A stretch of 63,818 nt of DNA, filler included, from Licmophora abbreviata (taxonomy: Eukaryota): assembly GCA_900291995.1 (NCBI GenBank). It is 4 parts of 4 records of this genome, joined end to end, with 100 filler letters (N's around TTAATTAATTAA, not from the genome) between each part and the next. Parts side by side here need not be neighbours in the genome. Positions count along the whole stretch, not along the records: positions 1 to 28,488 come from OLMU01000383.1; 3 more parts are not named here. One strand, 5' to 3'. Below are positions 20,398-32,380 of the stretch, piece by piece. The position numbers and the translations under genes were made by a program. The notes below the pieces were generated by a model. It had not been told where the DNA came from and made no database searches. It saw nothing but the letters and a program-made list of their open reading frames with translations. The stretch's first letter is position 1. Each line of letters begins with the position of its first letter.

Positions 20398-22479
20398 TCA
20401 TTTACACAGTCTGCTACCGGTAACAGCCATATTGTTTGTACTCTCTTTCGATCGTGCCATTTCCTGAAGAAGAGCTACCAGCTCGCCCTTTTTGTGCTTG
20501 GCTGACGCGATCTCTGTTCCAAAATCAACAAAAAGTATTGAGCAGATCTCCTTTTTGAGAAGCTTCGCGACGTCCCCGTTCTTATCGGCCAATTTTAGTT
20601 TTGCGGTGGGAGCCAGCATGCGCAGCTCCTTCAGCTCTGACGCCCTACTCTTAGCTGCAGGAGTTCTTGTGCGGACGGACCACTGGAAACCCAAGCCCTC
20701 AAGTCTCTCGATCCGTTCTGCCGTCAAAGACGACTCCTGTCCATTCTGCAGTTGACGATACTGGTTCCTCTGCTGGATAACAAAGGACACAACTTCAGTG
20801 TCGGAAGAAGACCTCGGTACTCTACAGTGACCAAATTTCATCCGATAGGCTGTCAGCTTTTCCAATCCACGCGAAAACACATCTCCGTAGATATCGAAGA
20901 CAAACCCGATATCACGAAGCTGTTCCTCGCGTACTTTGGGAAGCTTTCCGTCTCGATAGCTTTTGCGCTGCTTCTGCACCCATAGAGAGAGTGTTCGATC
21001 ATCAGGATAATCGACGGGAACAGCGCAGGTCCCATGCACTTCGCGGAAAGCCTTCAAGGCTCGGAACTGGCTCTGCCACCTGCTTTCGAGAGGATCCCAT
21101 TCCACGCCGAGCTCGTCCAGATCATGAATCTTTTGACTAGTAAGTGTGCTGTCCCAGGGTCTGTCTTGATAGATTCGATACTGAGATCGCTGATAAATCA
21201 GCCAGGTGGCAAGTTCAAAGTCCTGTGCCTTCTTCACCCGCAGATTCCCATGCTGCTCACGGAACTGCTTCAGGTCCTGGATTCTCGACTCCCACTGAGA
21301 CGTGACTGGATCCCAGTCGAGACCGAGAGCATCCAACGCCAACACTCGCGGCTGCGTCATAGAAGTGGGCATCTCTTGTCGCAATTTCCTGTACTCCGTG
21401 CGCTGTGATTGAATCCAAAGTGCAAGTCCCGGAAACTCGCGATCCGTAGTAGCGTTTGAGCTGCTCACTCGGACATGCCCATGCTTCTCTTTAAACTTCC
21501 GCAGTTGCTCGTAGCGATCTTTCCATCGCAAATGAATTTTGAAAGAAAATCCAATGTCATAAAGCATTTGAATTCTCCATGGACTCAACGGATTTAACTT
21601 CCGCCCAAACTTCCGGTCGCTTATCACTTCGTGCTGATAGTAATTGTTGCGTACATATCTCCGGTAGAGCATTCGTTGCTTAAAGACCCACCGCCCCAAC
21701 GATTCGTCTTCTTTCCATTCCAATGGCACATCGACATGCCCAAAACGAGCCATGAATGCCGCTAGCTTTGTATAGTACACAAGCCATCGCTCGTCGTCTA
21801 GCTCACAGCCAAACCCGTAGTGCTCATCTCGTAGTTTGCGATTCGATCCTATTCCCCTTTCTTGCGGCGGCAAGTTGAATGGTCCGTGCCACGGAATCGG
21901 CATCTGAATGTCTGTGCTCTCAGCATTCAATGAGACGTTCTGCATTAGTTCTGTTTCATCCAGTGACCGCCACAACTGACGAGTGGCTTCCATATTGTTG
22001 CGCCGTAGTCCATTTTCGCTCAGTACATGCTCCGCCCTCCATGGAAATCCGTTCTTGTCTATCACCACATCACAGGGCGTCTCAACATTGCTGGAAGTTC
22101 TGCTAGAAAACAAGGTGACATTGTAGAGGTGTGGTTCTGGACGGCCCTGTGACCCTACCCACTTGCCATCGACGACACGACCGTTACGGTACCAAATGCG
22201 TTGTCCGTCCACTGTCAGGCGTTCCTTGTCGGGGCCGAACGTTTCTGAATATTGGCATGCCGCAGTGAAACTAGGACCTCCTTGGTTACTTTGAATTTCA
22301 CTCAGTTCATCCAAATAAATAACGGTATCGTCATCGTCGTTTTGACTGTGTGGTGAGGATGCCGGCGATGCGTTTCCAGGTCGGCCACTATGATGTCTCG
22401 AGCACTCCAGTGACCTGATAACGAATCCATGACACTTCCAGGTCGTCAAAATTGTAGCAAACAAAACTAATCTATTCAT
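20398..22479 (-). CDS. Helicase-associated (HA) domain repeat protein, 5 repeats, predicted plastid-targeted
   Basis: Five units of W..Y/F..L..F...HGH..VP....LG.WV..QR......L...RI..L..(I/L)GF.W. N-terminus MNRLVLFATILTTWKCHG-FVIRS is a signal peptide with F at +1. No helicase motifs. Confidence 0.85.
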   Translation of the reverse strand: MNRLVLFATILTTWKCHGFVIRSLECSRHHSGRPGNASPASSPHSQNDDDDTVIYLDELSEIQSNQGGPSFTAACQYSETFGPDKERLTVDGQRIWYRNGRVVDGKWVGSQGRPEPHLYNVTLFSSRTSSNVETPCDVVIDKNGFPWRAEHVLSENGLRRNNMEATRQLWRSLDETELMQNVSLNAESTDIQMPIPWHGPFNLPPQERGIGSNRKLRDEHYGFGCELDDERWLVYYTKLAAFMARFGHVDVPLEWKEDESLGRWVFKQRMLYRRYVRNNYYQHEVISDRKFGRKLNPLSPWRIQMLYDIGFSFKIHLRWKDRYEQLRKFKEKHGHVRVSSSNATTDREFPGLALWIQSQRTEYRKLRQEMPTSMTQPRVLALDALGLDWDPVTSQWESRIQDLKQFREQHGNLRVKKAQDFELATWLIYQRSQYRIYQDRPWDSTLTSQKIHDLDELGVEWDPLESRWQSQFRALKAFREVHGTCAVPVDYPDDRTLSLWVQKQRKSYRDGKLPKVREEQLRDIGFVFDIYGDVFSRGLEKLTAYRMKFGHCRVPRSSSDTEVVSFVIQQRNQYRQLQNGQESSLTAERIERLEGLGFQWSVRTRTPAAKSRASELKELRMLAPTAKLKLADKNGDVAKLLKKEICSILFVDFGTEIASAKHKKGELVALLQEMARSKESTNNMAVTGSRLCK

Positions 22480-22811: not shown

Positions 22812-23990
22812 ATGATGATGATGCCGTCTCGGACGGTCAGTTTGCTCTTGGTGACTGCCCTTCTGTCACTTGTAGCTCATGCCTTTGTGCCCTTTTCTGC
22901 AAAGACTTACGTTTCATCATGTCGAGCGTCCTCCTCTCGGCTGTTTGGATACGGCGATAAGGCCTTCTATGACAACACGGTTCGCACGGACATCCGGAAT
23001 TTCCTAACGCAACGGGCCTTTCAAAGTTTCTTGTTCTTGCTGGAATCTTGTCGAGACCCGCACACCATAACGTGGCTTGAAGATACCTACGGGTGGTCCA
23101 ATCTGGAGAACTTTCACGGCACCGGCTTCTTCAACTTGACTCTGTATCCTTCATGGGATACACTTTTGCTCGATCTCATGTCGCAGCCACCCGGAGTGGT
23201 CGTCGTACGAGCCAAGCGACGCGGAAGAGGACACGGCGGGTGGAGCAAGCACAATCCTCATTTGGAAGAGCGCTTTGTGGAGTTTGATATTGACATTGAC
23301 CCCGTCTCGTTGGCGTCTCGTCTCTTGGCAGTCCGAGAACAGCTTGCGGGCGAGTGGCTTGCCGATCTCGATACGCTCGTGAGCATGAATGCCATGATTC
23401 TCCAGTCATACCAGGAGTATACACGGACGGCACGAGAAAGTGACACCACCGGAAAGCAAGTCTTTGAGCGCAACGCAGACTTTCTCATTGGCAACACGAA
23501 TGCAATGAGCTTTACGAGCCCGTCACCACTGCGAAAGGGGAACTTCGACCTAGTGGTCTTGTTGGCGACTCAGGAAAGCGTACATCGTGTGCTGCGGAAG
23601 TATCGGGATGAAGCTGATGGACAGTCATCCGTATCACTTGAGTGGCTGCGGGAATTTTACAAGGAGCGCGTCGCTTCTCACTTTGATGGCAATCAAGAGT
23701 ACGGTCGTGCCGATGACTTCCTAGAGGCGCTCTTGCTGACACCGCCATCGGTCAAGCGAAAGAGCGGGTCGCGCGGTGGAGACGAGGTGGACTTGATTGA
23801 TCCCCTGATGATCACAGAGGATATTCTGCGCATGCGAAGTCGAGTAGCCCACGACTGGAAAGATGTAGTGAAGAATGCTCCTGCAGAACATACGGACTTG
23901 CGAAAAGTACTTCTAGGGCGACAAATGGAAAAGTGGGGACAACCTGAAACGCCAGCAGCTGTGGAGGGAGATGATGGAGCTTTCCAGTGA
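22812..23990 (+). CDS. Predicted plastid protein with two RbcX-like repeats (uncharacterised)
   Basis: Signal peptide ending VAHA-FVP plus an S/R-rich transit peptide. Two internal repeats resemble RbcX (see findings). Intronless. The CDS is solid; the fold assignment is tentative. Confidence 0.75.
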   Translation: MMMMPSRTVSLLLVTALLSLVAHAFVPFSAKTYVSSCRASSSRLFGYGDKAFYDNTVRTDIRNFLTQRAFQSFLFLLESCRDPHTITWLEDTYGWSNLENFHGTGFFNLTLYPSWDTLLLDLMSQPPGVVVVRAKRRGRGHGGWSKHNPHLEERFVEFDIDIDPVSLASRLLAVREQLAGEWLADLDTLVSMNAMILQSYQEYTRTARESDTTGKQVFERNADFLIGNTNAMSFTSPSPLRKGNFDLVVLLATQESVHRVLRKYRDEADGQSSVSLEWLREFYKERVASHFDGNQEYGRADDFLEALLLTPPSVKRKSGSRGGDEVDLIDPLMITEDILRMRSRVAHDWKDVVKNAPAEHTDLRKVLLGRQMEKWGQPETPAAVEGDDGAFQ

Positions 23991-24221: not shown

Positions 24222-24902
24222 CTAAAAACTTCCACCATGATGGCTCGTTCGCATAGATGCCTGAATCGTACTTGCCGCATGGGTGGCAGCCGTCCTCGTC
24301 GTCGATCCAAGCCCCATGCACTTGTCGAGATGAGATGCGAAACGCAGGGTGCCGACGCGACGACCACAAATATGACAGAGTGCCAGGCGCTGCGGGTCTT
24401 CCTTTAACGGAATCTTGCCCCAAATGTCGAATTGGGAATTGCGTGGCGGCATGCTTGTAGCAGCGGCGGCATTGGAGGCCGGGTGGTTGTCGGATGGAGT
24501 CGGCGGCACCGACTCGCTCGTTGTGCCAGAAGCTGACTTGCTGCTGCAGTCATCATCCTGCATGGTGATATCTTCCGACTGCTCTTCTGGAAGTCGAATC
24601 GAATGACTTTTAGGAACGGTCGTCGCGTAGTAATCTAGCTTCTCCTGAACTTGTTCGTCGTTCTGGTACAGTGTTGGATACAGGTCTCGCCGAGATCGAG
24701 GAAGGGATGTGCCACCGGTGCCTCCTGTCTTGAAGAGGCGATGCGTTCCGCTGGCCACGTTGACACATGACTTGCTCACCACTTGGTCGTATATATGTTT
24801 ATCTGTGCCAGTTACAGAAGTCTGGTGCCGTTTCTGGTGCGAGGAGGTGTGCTGCTGCTCACTGGCTTCCCCCTGATCATTGTCACTCCGATTCGCAGTC
24901 AT
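24222..24902 (-). CDS. SGF11: SAGA deubiquitinase module subunit Sgf11/ATXN7L3-like
   Basis: DIWG followed by the zinc finger CHICGRRVGTLRFASHLDKCMG, the typical Sgf11 C2HC finger. Confidence 0.8.
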   Translation of the reverse strand: MTANRSDNDQGEASEQQHTSSHQKRHQTSVTGTDKHIYDQVVSKSCVNVASGTHRLFKTGGTGGTSLPRSRRDLYPTLYQNDEQVQEKLDYYATTVPKSHSIRLPEEQSEDITMQDDDCSSKSASGTTSESVPPTPSDNHPASNAAAATSMPPRNSQFDIWGKIPLKEDPQRLALCHICGRRVGTLRFASHLDKCMGLGSTTRTAATHAASTIQASMRTSHHGGSF

Positions 24903-28588: not shown

Positions 28589-30940
28589 CGAAGATGGCCA
28601 CGTTGAGACTCGTGCGGATTCTGGTGGATACCGACGCGAATGCCGTTGCCCAGTCGACGGAGAGTAAAGGGGCGAGTAAGCTGGTCCGACGATGTGTCGG
28701 GAGTTCCGTCAGTAAAACGGCCACCAGTCCACTCCGCCGGGCTCTCTTGAAGGGCCTTTGCAATCTCCTCTTCCGAAATGAGAGTGTGCGGAACGACGAC
28801 ATCTTCTTCTGGCTCTACAGGAATCTGACATGCCTCGTAGATCGTCTTCACCAGGCTGTCTTCGTCGCAGTAGTCGGGGCCGCTCGTGCTTGCAGTTTTG
28901 GGAGAGCAAGCTACCGCGATGGAGACACCTACCGCCTCGTCACTTCCATTCTTGAAGTTGGTAATGTGAGAGCAAAGCTCAGAAGCCGCTTCATTAACAT
29001 CTTCCAAAGTGAGAGTCTGCAGTGCCTTCGCCGTTATCTGGTACGATTGCATGGGCGACATAAACACATGCCCATTTGCCACGGTTTCCATCAGGTACGA
29101 AAGCTGGTCACCGTGACTGATTCGATCGCCCTGGGCGGCGAGCTGTTCGGCATCTGTCATGAGAGATGAGGCATAACGTTCCATCTCGCCAGGCGTGACA
29201 CCATACAGTCCCAACTTGCGGATTTCCGACAGGGATTTGGAAATGGCATCTCTCCACCTGTTGGGTTCAGCAGTCATGTCCAAACTGCAAACGGCGCATC
29301 CTTCGCGTGCTGAATCAAGTTGGTTGAACTCAACAAAGGTGAAAGCAGGATCATCGCTGCGTCCACCGACGTTCAAGCGAATCTGTAGAGCCGCTAGAGC
29401 GATTCGACGAGCCAAGCTTCGACGAAATGATTTCAAATCAGCCACTGGTTCCACAGGGCGTTTTGAAAACAAGTGCAAGGAGAACGACTGTAGCAGCTCG
29501 TGCCTGGTAAAAGAGAAAGAGAATACACATTGATGAGTCTAGGGCCAAATCCTTAAAAAGACGTAGCATGCGCCTGGCTTGGCTTACCTAAAGATGTGAG
29601 GGCGAATTTTCTTTCCTGGTGCAACCTCTTCTGTGTGCAGCATCGCAACCTTGTCATCGAGCGGCATGGGTTTCTGAAGCTGAATATCATAAACGCCTTC
29701 ATGGTCTTGTTTGACCAGATTCTCATCGATCTCCAAGTCCTTCGGTACACACCAGTCATGAATGACCGGGGGGTAGTGCCAACTCTGTGCTGACTTTACG
29801 GTTCCGTCAACTAGGCATCTGCCAGATCGCTCGCCTCCGCTTTGAGCTCCGGAATGCTCATCTCCGTCGCCTGCTTCTCAGCACTCAAATGTCCAAACTT
29901 TTCGGCAATCACTTTTTCGGCTTCTTCCGCATCGATGTCTCCTACCAGGTAGAGCAACACATTGTCGGGGCGATAGTGTGTACGATGCCACGTGCGGACA
30001 TCGTCTCCGGTCCAGCTCCGAATTAGACTTTCTTTTCCAATCGGAAATCGCTTAGCCAATCGGTTTTCACGATGCAATGTGGACAGAATCTGACATTCTA
30101 CTCGATACTCGATCGTATTTACCATGGTCATCTCAGACAAGACTGCAGCCCGTTCCTTTTCAAGTCGCGAACTTTCTACACGAGCCTCCATGACATCCAC
30201 CAGCGCATCCAACGCCATGGGTAACATCTGGACGTTGCCACGCGGTGTTTTTACGGGACAAGCAGCATAAAATACCGTGTGATGAAAGTCAGTATATGCG
30301 TTCGTTTGCGAACCGGTGCCAAAGAGACGTTCTCGCTTGCGGGAGCCCATGTATGCCACGTGTTCTGTCAAGTGAGCAATCCCCTGCTGTGGCTCCAACT
30401 CGTCGGCTAGAGAGGTAGAATGACAGATGGAAAGGTGAGAACTAAGGTCATCAAGTCGTCCTGTTCTCGTATTTTCACTAGATTGTCGCATATGTCCGTA
30501 CCTGACCCCGAGAAAACCTGCAAGTGGGCTTCGAAACGTCCAGGAGGACTCTTGTTCGGTAGGATAACGTATGGAAGACCATTGTCCAGAGTGCCGCTTC
30601 GAACATCAGGGTGCATCGGAAGCTGTTCCGAAAACTCAACAGAGAACTTCTTCATCTCCGGTCCCTTCTTTTCAAGACAGTTCAGAGGCGAAATGTGGGG
30701 TCGGACACTGGGGTGGGGCTCCAAGCTTGCGCCCTTCTTTCCTCTAAGTGAGGTTGCCTTATTGCCACCAAACAGATTTCCCAAAGAAAATTCCTTGTTT
30801 GCCTGCATCACCATCGGATCCCTTCTCCTCAGCTGCTGCTGTGTTGTCACAGGCTTGGAGGCTCCCCATGGTTTCAGAGAATACGCCGCTGTGAGCTGCA
30901 ACAGGGCGGCGGCAGCGAGAGAAACGGCGATGATCCTCAT
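28589..30940 (-). CDS. SPP: Stromal processing peptidase (M16 metalloprotease), 3'-truncated by gap, with an apparent frameshift near 29813
   Basis: Signal peptide ending LTAA-YSL; GTLDNGLPYVILPNKSPPGRFEAHL; inverted zinc motif AHLTEH; NAYTDFHHTVF; RFPIGKE; RLGNGIRV. Introns 30407-30501 and 29504-29587. Confidence 0.88.
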
Positions 30941-31453: not shown

Positions 31454-32380
31454 TCAGGCTTTCTCTTGCGACTCCTGAGGTCCTCGCCAGTTGACAATGC
31501 TCTCTCGTTCGCGCTCCGACATTTTGGTAACCGTCCAGTGAGCCCACAACAACGCTCCGATATCATAAAAGGCATGGCAGGCAATCGGAACCACCAAGTT
31601 GTCAGTGGAACTGTATAAAAATCCGAAGAAGATGCTCGCCCCTGTCGCCAACGCAGCATACAATGGTGTGACAGCATGTAGCGCTCCAAAAACAATCGAA
31701 GAAATTCCAATGGCCCAAATGGGATCCATCAACCGTGTTGCGAGTTCGTACTGTAAGACTCCCCGAAACAAGAGTTCTTCTCCGATCCCTGCAGCCAGTC
31801 CCAGGGTCGCAGATGCGAGGAGCGCGAAGATTGGTTTGAAGGTGCCACCCAACAGTGCAATCACGCTACGCTGCGTCGCCTTCGTGACATCCTGCAAAGC
31901 AGGGAATCGATCTTCAATCGTATCCAGCAGTCCTGCGAGGGCAAACAATGGAATGGTGTACAAACTGCCTTGTAGCAGGGCACTCGACGAGAAGATGATA
32001 TCAGGTCCAAACCCTAGATTTGGTGTCTTGAGGGCCAATGCGGCAATAAAGGCAAAAACGATAAGTATGCATTGTCCCCCAATCAAGGTGAGAGTAGTTC
32101 TTCCGTTGAAAAGTGGGTCTTCCTCTGGTTGAGCCGATAGCTGTAGCACTTTTTTGTAGTCCGAGGCTTGAGTCACTGCGTTCCTGTCGTGGCCTGTCGT
32201 CAGTCGACCTGCACTTGATCTCGTCCAACATGGCGAGGGCCTTCGGTGGACTCTGATATAAGATCTTGGGCTCAAATTTGCTGCCCCGTGCGAAAAACCG
32301 TGACTATTCTGTGATACGAAGAGCAACAAGAACAAAATCTGAACCAATGTTCGAATGGAAAGACGGCATGGCTTGGTCAT
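31454..32380 (-). CDS. CPBP (Abi/CAAX protease-like) intramembrane metalloprotease, predicted plastid-targeted
   Basis: GIGEELLFRG, FGALH and CHAFYD motifs. Signal peptide ending SHG-FSH. Confidence 0.87.
   Translation of the reverse strand: MTKPCRLSIRTLVQILFLLLFVSQNSHGFSHGAANLSPRSYIRVHRRPSPCWTRSSAGRLTTGHDRNAVTQASDYKKVLQLSAQPEEDPLFNGRTTLTLIGGQCILIVFAFIAALALKTPNLGFGPDIIFSSSALLQGSLYTIPLFALAGLLDTIEDRFPALQDVTKATQRSVIALLGGTFKPIFALLASATLGLAAGIGEELLFRGVLQYELATRLMDPIWAIGISSIVFGALHAVTPLYAALATGASIFFGFLYSSTDNLVVPIACHAFYDIGALLWAHWTVTKMSERERESIVNWRGPQESQEKA

Follow-up and report, generated by a model that had tools for sequence, protein, structure and literature searches.

What could a protein built like RbcX be doing in a diatom? 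Diatoms use Form ID Rubisco and RbcX serves the green-type Form IB enzyme, and yet a gene at positions 22812-23990 (+) of a 63,818-nucleotide window of Licmophora abbreviata DNA encodes a protein, P0001, in which a preliminary description had seen two fused RbcX domains behind a plastid presequence. All coordinates below are those of the window, meaning the whole stretch of DNA analysed. The answer reached here is that P0001 is a remote, tandem and asymmetric RbcX-fold protein and not a canonical RbcX. The reading that we favour, with a probability of roughly 0.5, goes further: a nuclear diatom gene would supply the plastid with an imported tandem RbcX homologue, whose two units pack together in the manner of the RbcX dimer and which binds Form ID RbcL or an assembly intermediate.

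Layout, fold and internal repeat of P0001

According to the list of open reading frames (ORFs) and the translation, the gene is one uninterrupted ORF of 392 amino acids plus stop, from ATG to TGA; the ORF and the peptides quoted in the preliminary description were all recovered there, approximately where they had been placed. Since P0001 aligns with full-length diatom homologues from the N-terminal Met through a conserved C-terminal G-x-F-Q/E, the gene is whole and no intron is needed. No second copy of it was found within the window. A look-up of the gene among sequencing runs returned marine metagenomes, the best run containing 0.35 of the sampled words, and listed no RNA run. The parts of the gene are the following, pLDDT being the predicted local distance difference test of the structural model.

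22812..23990 (+): whole gene, intronless, encoding P0001 (ORF list, translation, end-to-end alignment with homologues)
22812..22883 (+): signal peptide, residues 1-24 (MMMMPSRTVSLLLVTALLSLVAHA), with predicted cleavage after AHA (model helix 8-21; conservation of position 24)
22884..22949 (+): Phe25 at +1 (F-V-P) and a short Ser/Thr-rich, disordered, transit-peptide-like stretch, residues 25-46 (conservation of F25 and P27; low pLDDT)
22950..23438 (+): unit 1, residues 47-209 (model secondary structure; structural and profile matches to RbcX)
23208..23273 (+): basic Gly-rich hairpin loop inserted in unit 1, residues 133-154 (KRRGRGHGGWSKHNPHLEER) (family alignment)
23439..23531 (+): linker, residues 210-240, with helix 222-232 and the SPxRKGNFD motif (model secondary structure and alignment)
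23532..23933 (+): unit 2, residues 241-374 (structural and profile matches to RbcX)
23934..23987 (+): disordered C-terminal tail, residues 375-392, ending G-x-F-(Q/E) (pLDDT 45-54; alignment)

The full-length AlphaFold2 model, computed with 150 homologues, has a mean pLDDT of 88.0 and a predicted template modelling score (pTM) of 0.82, with disorder confined to residues 1-5, residues 24-42 and the last 20 or so. In unit 1, the model places a helix at 47-58, followed by the RbcX-like helices 61-79, 83-93 and 117-124 and the long helix 164-209, together with a beta-hairpin (strands 128-135/155-162) in whose loop the pLDDT falls to 75-84 and W144 occurs in 89 of 150 sequences. Unit 2 is modelled with RbcX-like helices at 241-266, 272-291 and 299-309, a short hairpin (313-316/326-329) and a long helix that is kinked, running over 331-354 and 356-374. 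The linker motif between the units is strongly conserved in the 150-sequence alignment (S238 in 144, R241 in 145, F245 in 143 and D246 in all 150).

The models were compared exhaustively, by VIA-align, with 48,161 representative chains of the PDB, each chain yielding a single alignment. With the full-length model, ranks 1-5 of the 48,161 are all RbcX, at Z 8.2-9.2, and all are aligned to residues 232-382, which is unit 2:

3q20_B: Thermosynechococcus RbcX, Z 9.2 (full-length model, unit 2)
4gr6_B: Arabidopsis RbcX2, Z 8.9 (full-length model, unit 2)
4gr2_B: Arabidopsis RbcX1, Z 8.8 (full-length model, unit 2), with 116 of its 118 residues aligned
2peo_A: Anabaena RbcX, Z 8.3 (full-length model, unit 2)
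5bs2_A: Chlamydomonas RbcX-IIa, Z 8.2 (full-length model, unit 2)

Because only one alignment is returned per chain, unit 1 was folded alone, from the translation of positions 22947-23459 and with the same homologues (pLDDT 91.9, pTM 0.80). The identical five RbcX structures again occupy ranks 1-5 of 48,161, at Z 7.7-8.9, and the next row stands at Z 5.1. Between 104 and 117 residues are aligned, nearly the entire RbcX chain, with a high root-mean-square deviation of 6-8 Å that we ascribe to the straight course of the long alpha4 when unit 1 is modelled in isolation. As modelled, each unit has the RbcX protomer fold, a helical bundle alpha1-alpha4 with a long alpha4, and the comparison of each half with RbcX that the preliminary description had proposed as its check comes out in its favour.

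The relationship between the two units was examined by splitting the family alignment at residue 215/216 and comparing its halves (50-215 vs 216-392) by hhalign. With 30 sequences, the halves match at a probability of 95.6% (E 1.1e-8, 110 columns), and with 150 sequences at 97.0% (E 1.1e-10, score 67.8, 118 columns), while the best score among 30 column-shuffled controls is 21.0 (E 0.011) and the reversed control scores 14.3. The register of this repeat is the one read by eye in the preliminary description, whose two related units are thereby upheld: FLTQRxIQSF pairs with LxTQESIHR, WLE.F with WLR.FY, a P-P turn with a P-S turn, and IDPxSLxxRIL.VREQIA.EW with DPxxIAExII..R..VA.EW. As the units are only about 19% identical, the duplication must be old. 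No clear single-unit relative was found among 44 matches to residues 55-210; most of these cover about 60-70% of the query region at high identity and are read as fragments or first exons of the same family.

Sequence signals and functional residues of RbcX

Searches at the sequence level lead to the same family. A Pfam scan of P0001 returned only RbcX (PF02341; E 0.064, 14 bits), residues 166-205 falling on profile positions 66-103. The same Pfam family is matched at E <= 1 by 24 of 30 family members, with a best E of 6.1e-5, and at E <= 0.05 by 15 of 29. Furthermore, the stretches matched are colinear with RbcX: alpha1-alpha2 of unit 1 in P0003, alpha4 of unit 1 in most members and alpha1-alpha2 of unit 2 in P0121. 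A family profile searched against PDB sequences gave two matches at E <= 10, both to RbcX (E 0.1 and 0.14), and a profile from a smaller alignment placed RbcX first (E 0.28) and one unrelated protein second. P0001 used as a single sequence retrieved only chance-level matches from the PDB sequences (an aminotransferase and RedE), and an NCBIfam scan of it returned no match.

Each unit was also compared by hhalign with a cyanobacterial RbcX profile assembled from 112 distinct ORFs, which were obtained from cyanobacterial genomes by a motif scan; this profile is narrow, mostly Nostocales, and of limited power. Unit 1 matches it at a probability of 83.5% (E 8.3e-6) over 31 columns, which extend to 111, still colinear, at a looser setting. 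For unit 2, the match has a probability of 43% (E 2.5e-4) and its 101 columns span the whole protomer. In addition, the RbcX hallmark L-x-x-R-I-x-x-V-R-E-x-I-A-x-E is recognisable in unit 1. Taken together, the sequence signals towards RbcX are weak but specific and agree with the fold.

In a protein-language-model Atlas, the nearest named neighbours of P0001 are RbcX clusters, at scores of 0.86-0.87, which we take as leads only. The same Atlas contains an unnamed cluster of 165 amino acids that scores 0.89, above the RbcX clusters, and whose sole taxon-assigned member is a red alga. This Rhodophyta cluster could be a single-unit relative, in which case it would bear on the origin of the family.

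Canonical RbcX promotes the assembly of RbcL8 and binds RbcL at its C-terminal motif, EIKFEF(D/E). In the available text of PMC4549274, RbcX is described as a Rubisco assembly chaperone, conserved in Form IB organisms, which is an arc-shaped dimer of helical subunits of about 15 kDa with a central hydrophobic cleft. Within this cleft, Tyr17 and Tyr20 hold Phe side chains of the RbcL tail (structure 2pej being of mutants), and a polar corner, formed by Gln29 and Arg70 (Gln69 and Arg118 in CrRbcX-IIa), touches the adjacent RbcL (PMC4549274, same parts). Positions equivalent to these were located in the two units through the hhalign alignments, a mapping of low confidence, and counted in the 150-sequence alignment:

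Tyr17: unit 1, Phe 93/Leu 57; unit 2, Leu 144 (low-confidence mapping)
Tyr20: unit 1, Gln 150/150; unit 2, Gln 140/150 (low-confidence mapping)
Gln29: unit 1, Leu 140/149; unit 2, variable (low-confidence mapping)
Arg70: unit 1, R170 in 149/150; unit 2, variable (Asp 45, Gln 23, Arg 20)
Arg75: unit 1, R175 in 149/150; unit 2, R342 in 149/150
Trp40: unit 1, W88 in 148/150; unit 2, Trp 97, Phe 39 or Tyr 12 of 150

The cleft tyrosines are thus replaced in both units, and of the two polar corners only half of one is kept. The VRE motif of alpha4 is preserved in unit 1, where Arg70/VRE constitutes the most conserved RbcX-like stretch. The family also conserves elements that RbcX lacks. In unit 1, these are an R-D-P-H turn between alpha1 and alpha2 and an invariant H102-G103 in a long loop; in both units, a beta-hairpin stands between alpha3 and alpha4, which in unit 1 bears a basic Gly/Trp loop (KRRGRGHGGWSKHNP). 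The SPxRKGNFD linker and the F-Q/E carboxy terminus complete this set. With RbcX residues partly kept and new elements conserved beside them, we file P0001 as a remote tandem RbcX-fold homologue rather than as a member of PF02341.

The carboxy terminus deserves a separate remark. Positions 23979-23987 encode a conserved G-x-F-(Q/E)-COOH end, in which F391 is found in 129 of the 150 aligned sequences and the final position is Q in 67 sequences and E in 64, and this end sits on an otherwise variable and disordered tail. It could serve as a ligand within the molecule itself, or as a signal for sorting or recognition; that the F-Q/E end might occupy the protein's own cleft is pure speculation.

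Family, targeting and proposed role

The family to which P0001 belongs is large. Of 8,000 candidates scored in a word-indexed search, 335 are relatives at E <= 0.001, and an exhaustive search of representatives at 50% identity found 741 at E <= 0.001 and 214 at E <= 1e-30. Names are available from the best 120-150 rows, most of which are unnamed; within them, all the rows with a named organism belong to diatoms (Fistulifera, Mayamaea, Epithemia, Nitzschia, Cylindrotheca, Seminavis, Skeletonema, Attheya, Amphora, Pseudo-nitzschia, Coscinodiscus, Chaetoceros and Thalassiosira sp.), and all the named relatives are annotated as 'hypothetical' or 'uncharacterized'. A cluster look-up of the divergent members gave almost no names and no taxonomic view beyond diatoms. 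Many members are complete ORFs in transcriptome assemblies, and family members are therefore expressed.

A FastTree tree, rooted at its midpoint, was built over 296 columns from 274 proteins matching residues 70-360 of P0001 or more. Two clades result, with 135 and 139 tips and support values of 0.94 and 1.0, and as six named diatom genera occur in both, the clades represent ancient paralogues. P0001 falls in clade A, whose members mostly have the basic Gly/Trp hairpin loop, while in the clade-B members examined a much shorter, non-basic loop takes its place. In Mayamaea pseudoterrestris, the two paralogues P0011 and P0321 carry close locus tags (MPSEU_001019100 and MPSEU_001017800) and the records of both give 382,242 bases as the longest contig; the pair may be closely spaced in the genome.

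Import into diatom plastids relies on a junction of the ASAFAP type, namely a signal peptide and a small residue followed by Phe at +1 (ASAFind), and this Phe after a small residue is the hallmark of import into the stroma. P0001 begins with a hydrophobic signal peptide (residues ~8-24) that ends in AHA and is followed by F-V-P, the junction AHA/FVP covering residues 22-27. In the 150-sequence alignment, position 24 is A, G or S in 130 sequences, F25 is present in 135 and P27 in 113. Residues 24-42 of P0001 have a pLDDT below 50 and are predicted to be disordered, as expected of a transit-peptide-like stretch. The plastid presequence noticed in the preliminary description is consistent with all this: the conserved A/G/S24-F25-x-P27 fits a bipartite presequence of the diatom ASAFAP type and suggests plastid import, the stroma being the likely location of the protein.

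How might such a protein work? By the model, the whole-chain pTM of 0.82 implies a fixed mutual arrangement of units 1 and 2, and since an isolated RbcX protomer is without a closed core, the two would almost certainly form one body. They would pair through their long alpha4 helices, 164-209 and 331-374 running antiparallel, as the chains of the RbcX dimer do, and helices 61-79 and 241-266 would form the floor of the cleft. This would leave a single asymmetric cleft, lined by the invariant Gln67 and Gln254 in place of Tyr20, and a single RbcX-like corner at Arg170, the equivalent of Arg70. Gln at both Tyr20 positions and one Arg70-type corner suggest an asymmetric site for one extended peptide, an asymmetry that duplication and fusion would permit. 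The C-terminal tail of Form ID RbcL differs from the green EIKFEF motif, and to our knowledge no role beyond Rubisco assembly has been described for the RbcX fold. The most economical client would be Form ID RbcL, bound at an extended tail or loop, or else an assembly intermediate, and the role may lie in the assembly, stabilisation or pyrenoid recruitment of diatom Rubisco rather than in that of a canonical RbcX. Whether the client is Rubisco-related at all we consider evenly balanced.

A lead in this direction comes from other members of the family. Some of them (e.g. P0112, P0115, P0240, P0099, P0102, P0103 and P0320) carry repeated (G/S/D)Y(L/F)(D/N/S)x(L/F/V)(S/G/N) motifs, situated in long N-terminal extensions or, in P0320, in an insertion of about 220 residues within unit 1. 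The strict form of the motif occurs in 17 of 411 proteins, compared with a mean of 0.34 (maximum 2) in 50 shuffles, and a looser form in 28 of the 67 members with an extension of at least 110 residues, including Thalassiosira and Skeletonema. On these stretches, the Pfam family DPC2 (PF25195) matches P0320 at E 1.5e-15 (57.9 bits) and seven others at E 0.0019-0.27, although the curated cut-off of 70 bits is reached by none of these family members, P0320 being the best. In T. pseudonana, DPC2 (diatom pyrenoid component 2) resides in the pyrenoid matrix and is a hub of Rubisco interactions; its function is described as not known, as is the way in which this alga condenses its Rubisco (bioRxiv 10.1101/2023.10.26.564148, available portion). 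By analogy with UM003_0241 of the green seaweed Ulva, described below, the Y-L-D-x-L-S repeats may tether the motif-bearing diatom proteins to Rubisco or the pyrenoid.

Pushed to its furthest, the proposal would make the family, possibly with both its paralogues, the missing dedicated assembly factor of Form ID Rubisco in diatoms: a single-chain, asymmetric RbcX descendant whose re-lined cleft reads the tail of red-type RbcL, and which in some diatoms with long-extension forms (such as Thalassiosira and Skeletonema) would also be tethered to the pyrenoid by DPC2-type Y-L-D-x-L-S stickers. In this full form, we regard it as unlikely.

The surroundings of the gene consist of two flanking ORFs, which give no functional clue to the RbcX-like gene:

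20398-22479 (-): 693-amino-acid ORF with five 'helicase associated' HA-domain stretches (PF03457, E 3.8e-78), upstream of the RbcX-like gene and divergent to it
24222-24902 (-): 226-amino-acid ORF with a zinc finger of the Sgf11 type (PF08209, E 3.9e-10), as in the SAGA deubiquitinase module, downstream and converging on the RbcX-like gene

Farther along the window, a 226-amino-acid ORF at 29811-30491 (-) contains only parts of the active and inactive domains of peptidase M16 and is probably one exon of a larger gene, and a 308-amino-acid ORF at 31454-32380 (-) has an Rce1-like CAAX protease domain.

Alternative explanations and known systems

Several results weigh against the favoured reading. 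The Pfam gathering cut-off for RbcX is 27 bits, and P0001 scores 14, the best of 29 other members 23.7 (P0121) and the further family members scanned at most 17.6. Foldseek, applied to both models, gave no match at E <= 0.001, its E-values being above 0.1, and VIA-align's own note warns that helical models can reach Z >=8 by chance, as they often do. Such a picture could arise if P0001 had no common descent with RbcX and were a convergent helical bundle accompanied by chance-level similarities, the more so as every sequence signal lies below curated or significance thresholds. We nevertheless consider this explanation highly improbable. Indeed, RbcX alone is picked out by Pfam (24/30), by the profile search of the PDB (2/2) and by hhalign, the matches are colinear across the whole protomer and the hallmark motif can be recognised in unit 1. 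Foldseek itself returned RbcX as the sole coherent high-probability group (probabilities of 0.66-0.87 with the full-length model and of 0.33-0.77 with unit 1; target-normalised template modelling scores of 0.49-0.66). Above all, the structural match is credible because units 1 and 2, compared separately, each have their first five rows filled by one and the same family, set off by a gap from what ranks below. P0001 is very probably an RbcX-fold tandem homologue. The signal peptide might also lead elsewhere, the protein being secreted or held in the endoplasmic reticulum or the periplastidial compartment instead of the stroma; the presequence was judged by inspection of its sequence, and its transit-peptide-like part is short, at about 20 residues. 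A Phe directly following the small residue, at +1, in 135 of 150 sequences and a Pro at +3 in 113 make this destination improbable.

The more substantial alternative concerns the client, and it accepts the homology: a true RbcX-fold tandem homologue would have been reused for another plastid client, for example as a scaffold or adaptor, its altered cleft binding a different peptide. The cleft and corner residues being replaced, with Tyr17, Tyr20 and Gln29 gone from both units and Arg70 lost from unit 2, the known RbcL-binding surfaces are not conserved, and the new conserved elements dominate (RDPH, H102-G103, the basic GGWSK hairpin, SPxRKGNFD and the C-terminal F-Q/E). Two paralogues have been retained across diatoms, which suggests specialisation. 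P0001 itself has no DPC2-like motif, and no Pfam DPC2 match even at E <= 10. Furthermore, in the parts available of PMC9833100 and PMC6508576, RbcX and other green assembly factors are absent from red-type Rubisco organisms, and red-type Rubisco is said not to need RbcX, as the preliminary description had stated, RbcX being supplanted by a C-terminal beta-hairpin of red-type RbcS, a 'built-in RbcX'; on that account, the need for an RbcX-like factor in the red lineage is not established. In the main text of the T. pseudonana pyrenoid proteome (bioRxiv 10.1101/2023.10.26.564148, supplement aside), the terms 'chaperone' and 'assembly factor' have 0 occurrences. Reuse for another client remains, to our mind, somewhat unlikely, since RbcX is described only in Rubisco assembly in the available text of PMC4549274, Arg70/VRE of alpha4 is kept in unit 1, and the DPC2-like motifs of some members point to Rubisco or the pyrenoid. 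The same sources on red-type Rubisco record that the Form ID enzyme fails heterologous assembly, which has never been obtained in plants or E. coli, and put this failure down to a probable want of unknown lineage-specific chaperones (PMC9833100, PMC6508576). We retain the reading of a plastid-imported tandem homologue that binds Form ID RbcL or an assembly intermediate. From the preliminary proposal of a pseudo-dimeric RbcX for red Rubisco, the RbcX fold of both halves and the repeat survive, but the RbcX residues are mostly replaced and the Pfam cut-off is not reached.

What appears new is that the red lineage has a single-chain, diverged and duplicated RbcX fold. Full-text searches of a collection with few subscription journals turned up no account of an RbcX-like protein from diatoms or other red-lineage algae, so that prior notice is possible. 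By its fold and remote homology, this deeply conserved and putatively plastid-addressed diatom family runs counter to the published view that organisms with red-type Rubisco are without any homologue of RbcX. It offers two concrete candidate genes per species as helpers of diatom Rubisco, and illustrates how a chaperone that is otherwise a homodimer may become a single-chain pseudo-dimer, in which an asymmetric binding site could evolve. The kinetics of the Form ID Rubiscos of diatoms and red algae are attractive, and if the assembly-factor reading is true, co-expression could let these enzymes assemble in E. coli or in plant chloroplasts. The DPC2-like motif may, for its part, be a clue to a signal for Rubisco or pyrenoid targeting in the motif-bearing diatoms (such as Thalassiosira and Skeletonema).

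Among known systems, the closest is RbcX itself (PF02341), with its cyanobacterial forms and the RbcX-I and RbcX-II of plants and green algae. The P0001 units share its protomer fold and colinear helix order, unit 1 shares the Arg70/Val-Arg-Glu motif of alpha4 and Trp40, and eukaryotic RbcX is addressed to the plastid, as P0001 is predicted to be. However, RbcX is a homodimer of subunits of about 15 kDa, whereas P0001 is one chain of two diverged units, in which the cleft residues Tyr17 and Tyr20 and the corner residue Gln29 are replaced, Arg70 persists in one unit only, and an extra beta-hairpin separates alpha3 from alpha4, with a basic loop in unit 1. The hosts differ as well, those of RbcX having Form IB Rubisco and those of the diatom family Form ID.

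The hairpin of red-type RbcS would act at the same step as that proposed for P0001, the stabilisation of red-type RbcL oligomers, but it is part of the enzyme, while P0001 is a separate nuclear-encoded protein. DPC2 is weakly matched by the short repeated motifs that some of the diatom proteins carry in extensions or insertions; unlike these proteins, it is not reported to have an RbcX-like domain in the available portion of bioRxiv 10.1101/2023.10.26.564148. Finally, in the green seaweed Ulva, the RbcX-like protein UM003_0241 bears a Rubisco-binding motif and localises to the pyrenoid (bioRxiv 10.64898/2026.07.16.738900, in the part available). It combines an RbcX-type domain with a short linear motif associated with Rubisco and the pyrenoid, as some members of the diatom family appear to do. 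UM003_0241 nonetheless belongs to the green lineage and has a recognisable RbcX domain, whereas the diatom motifs are a putative lead and P0001 is without them.

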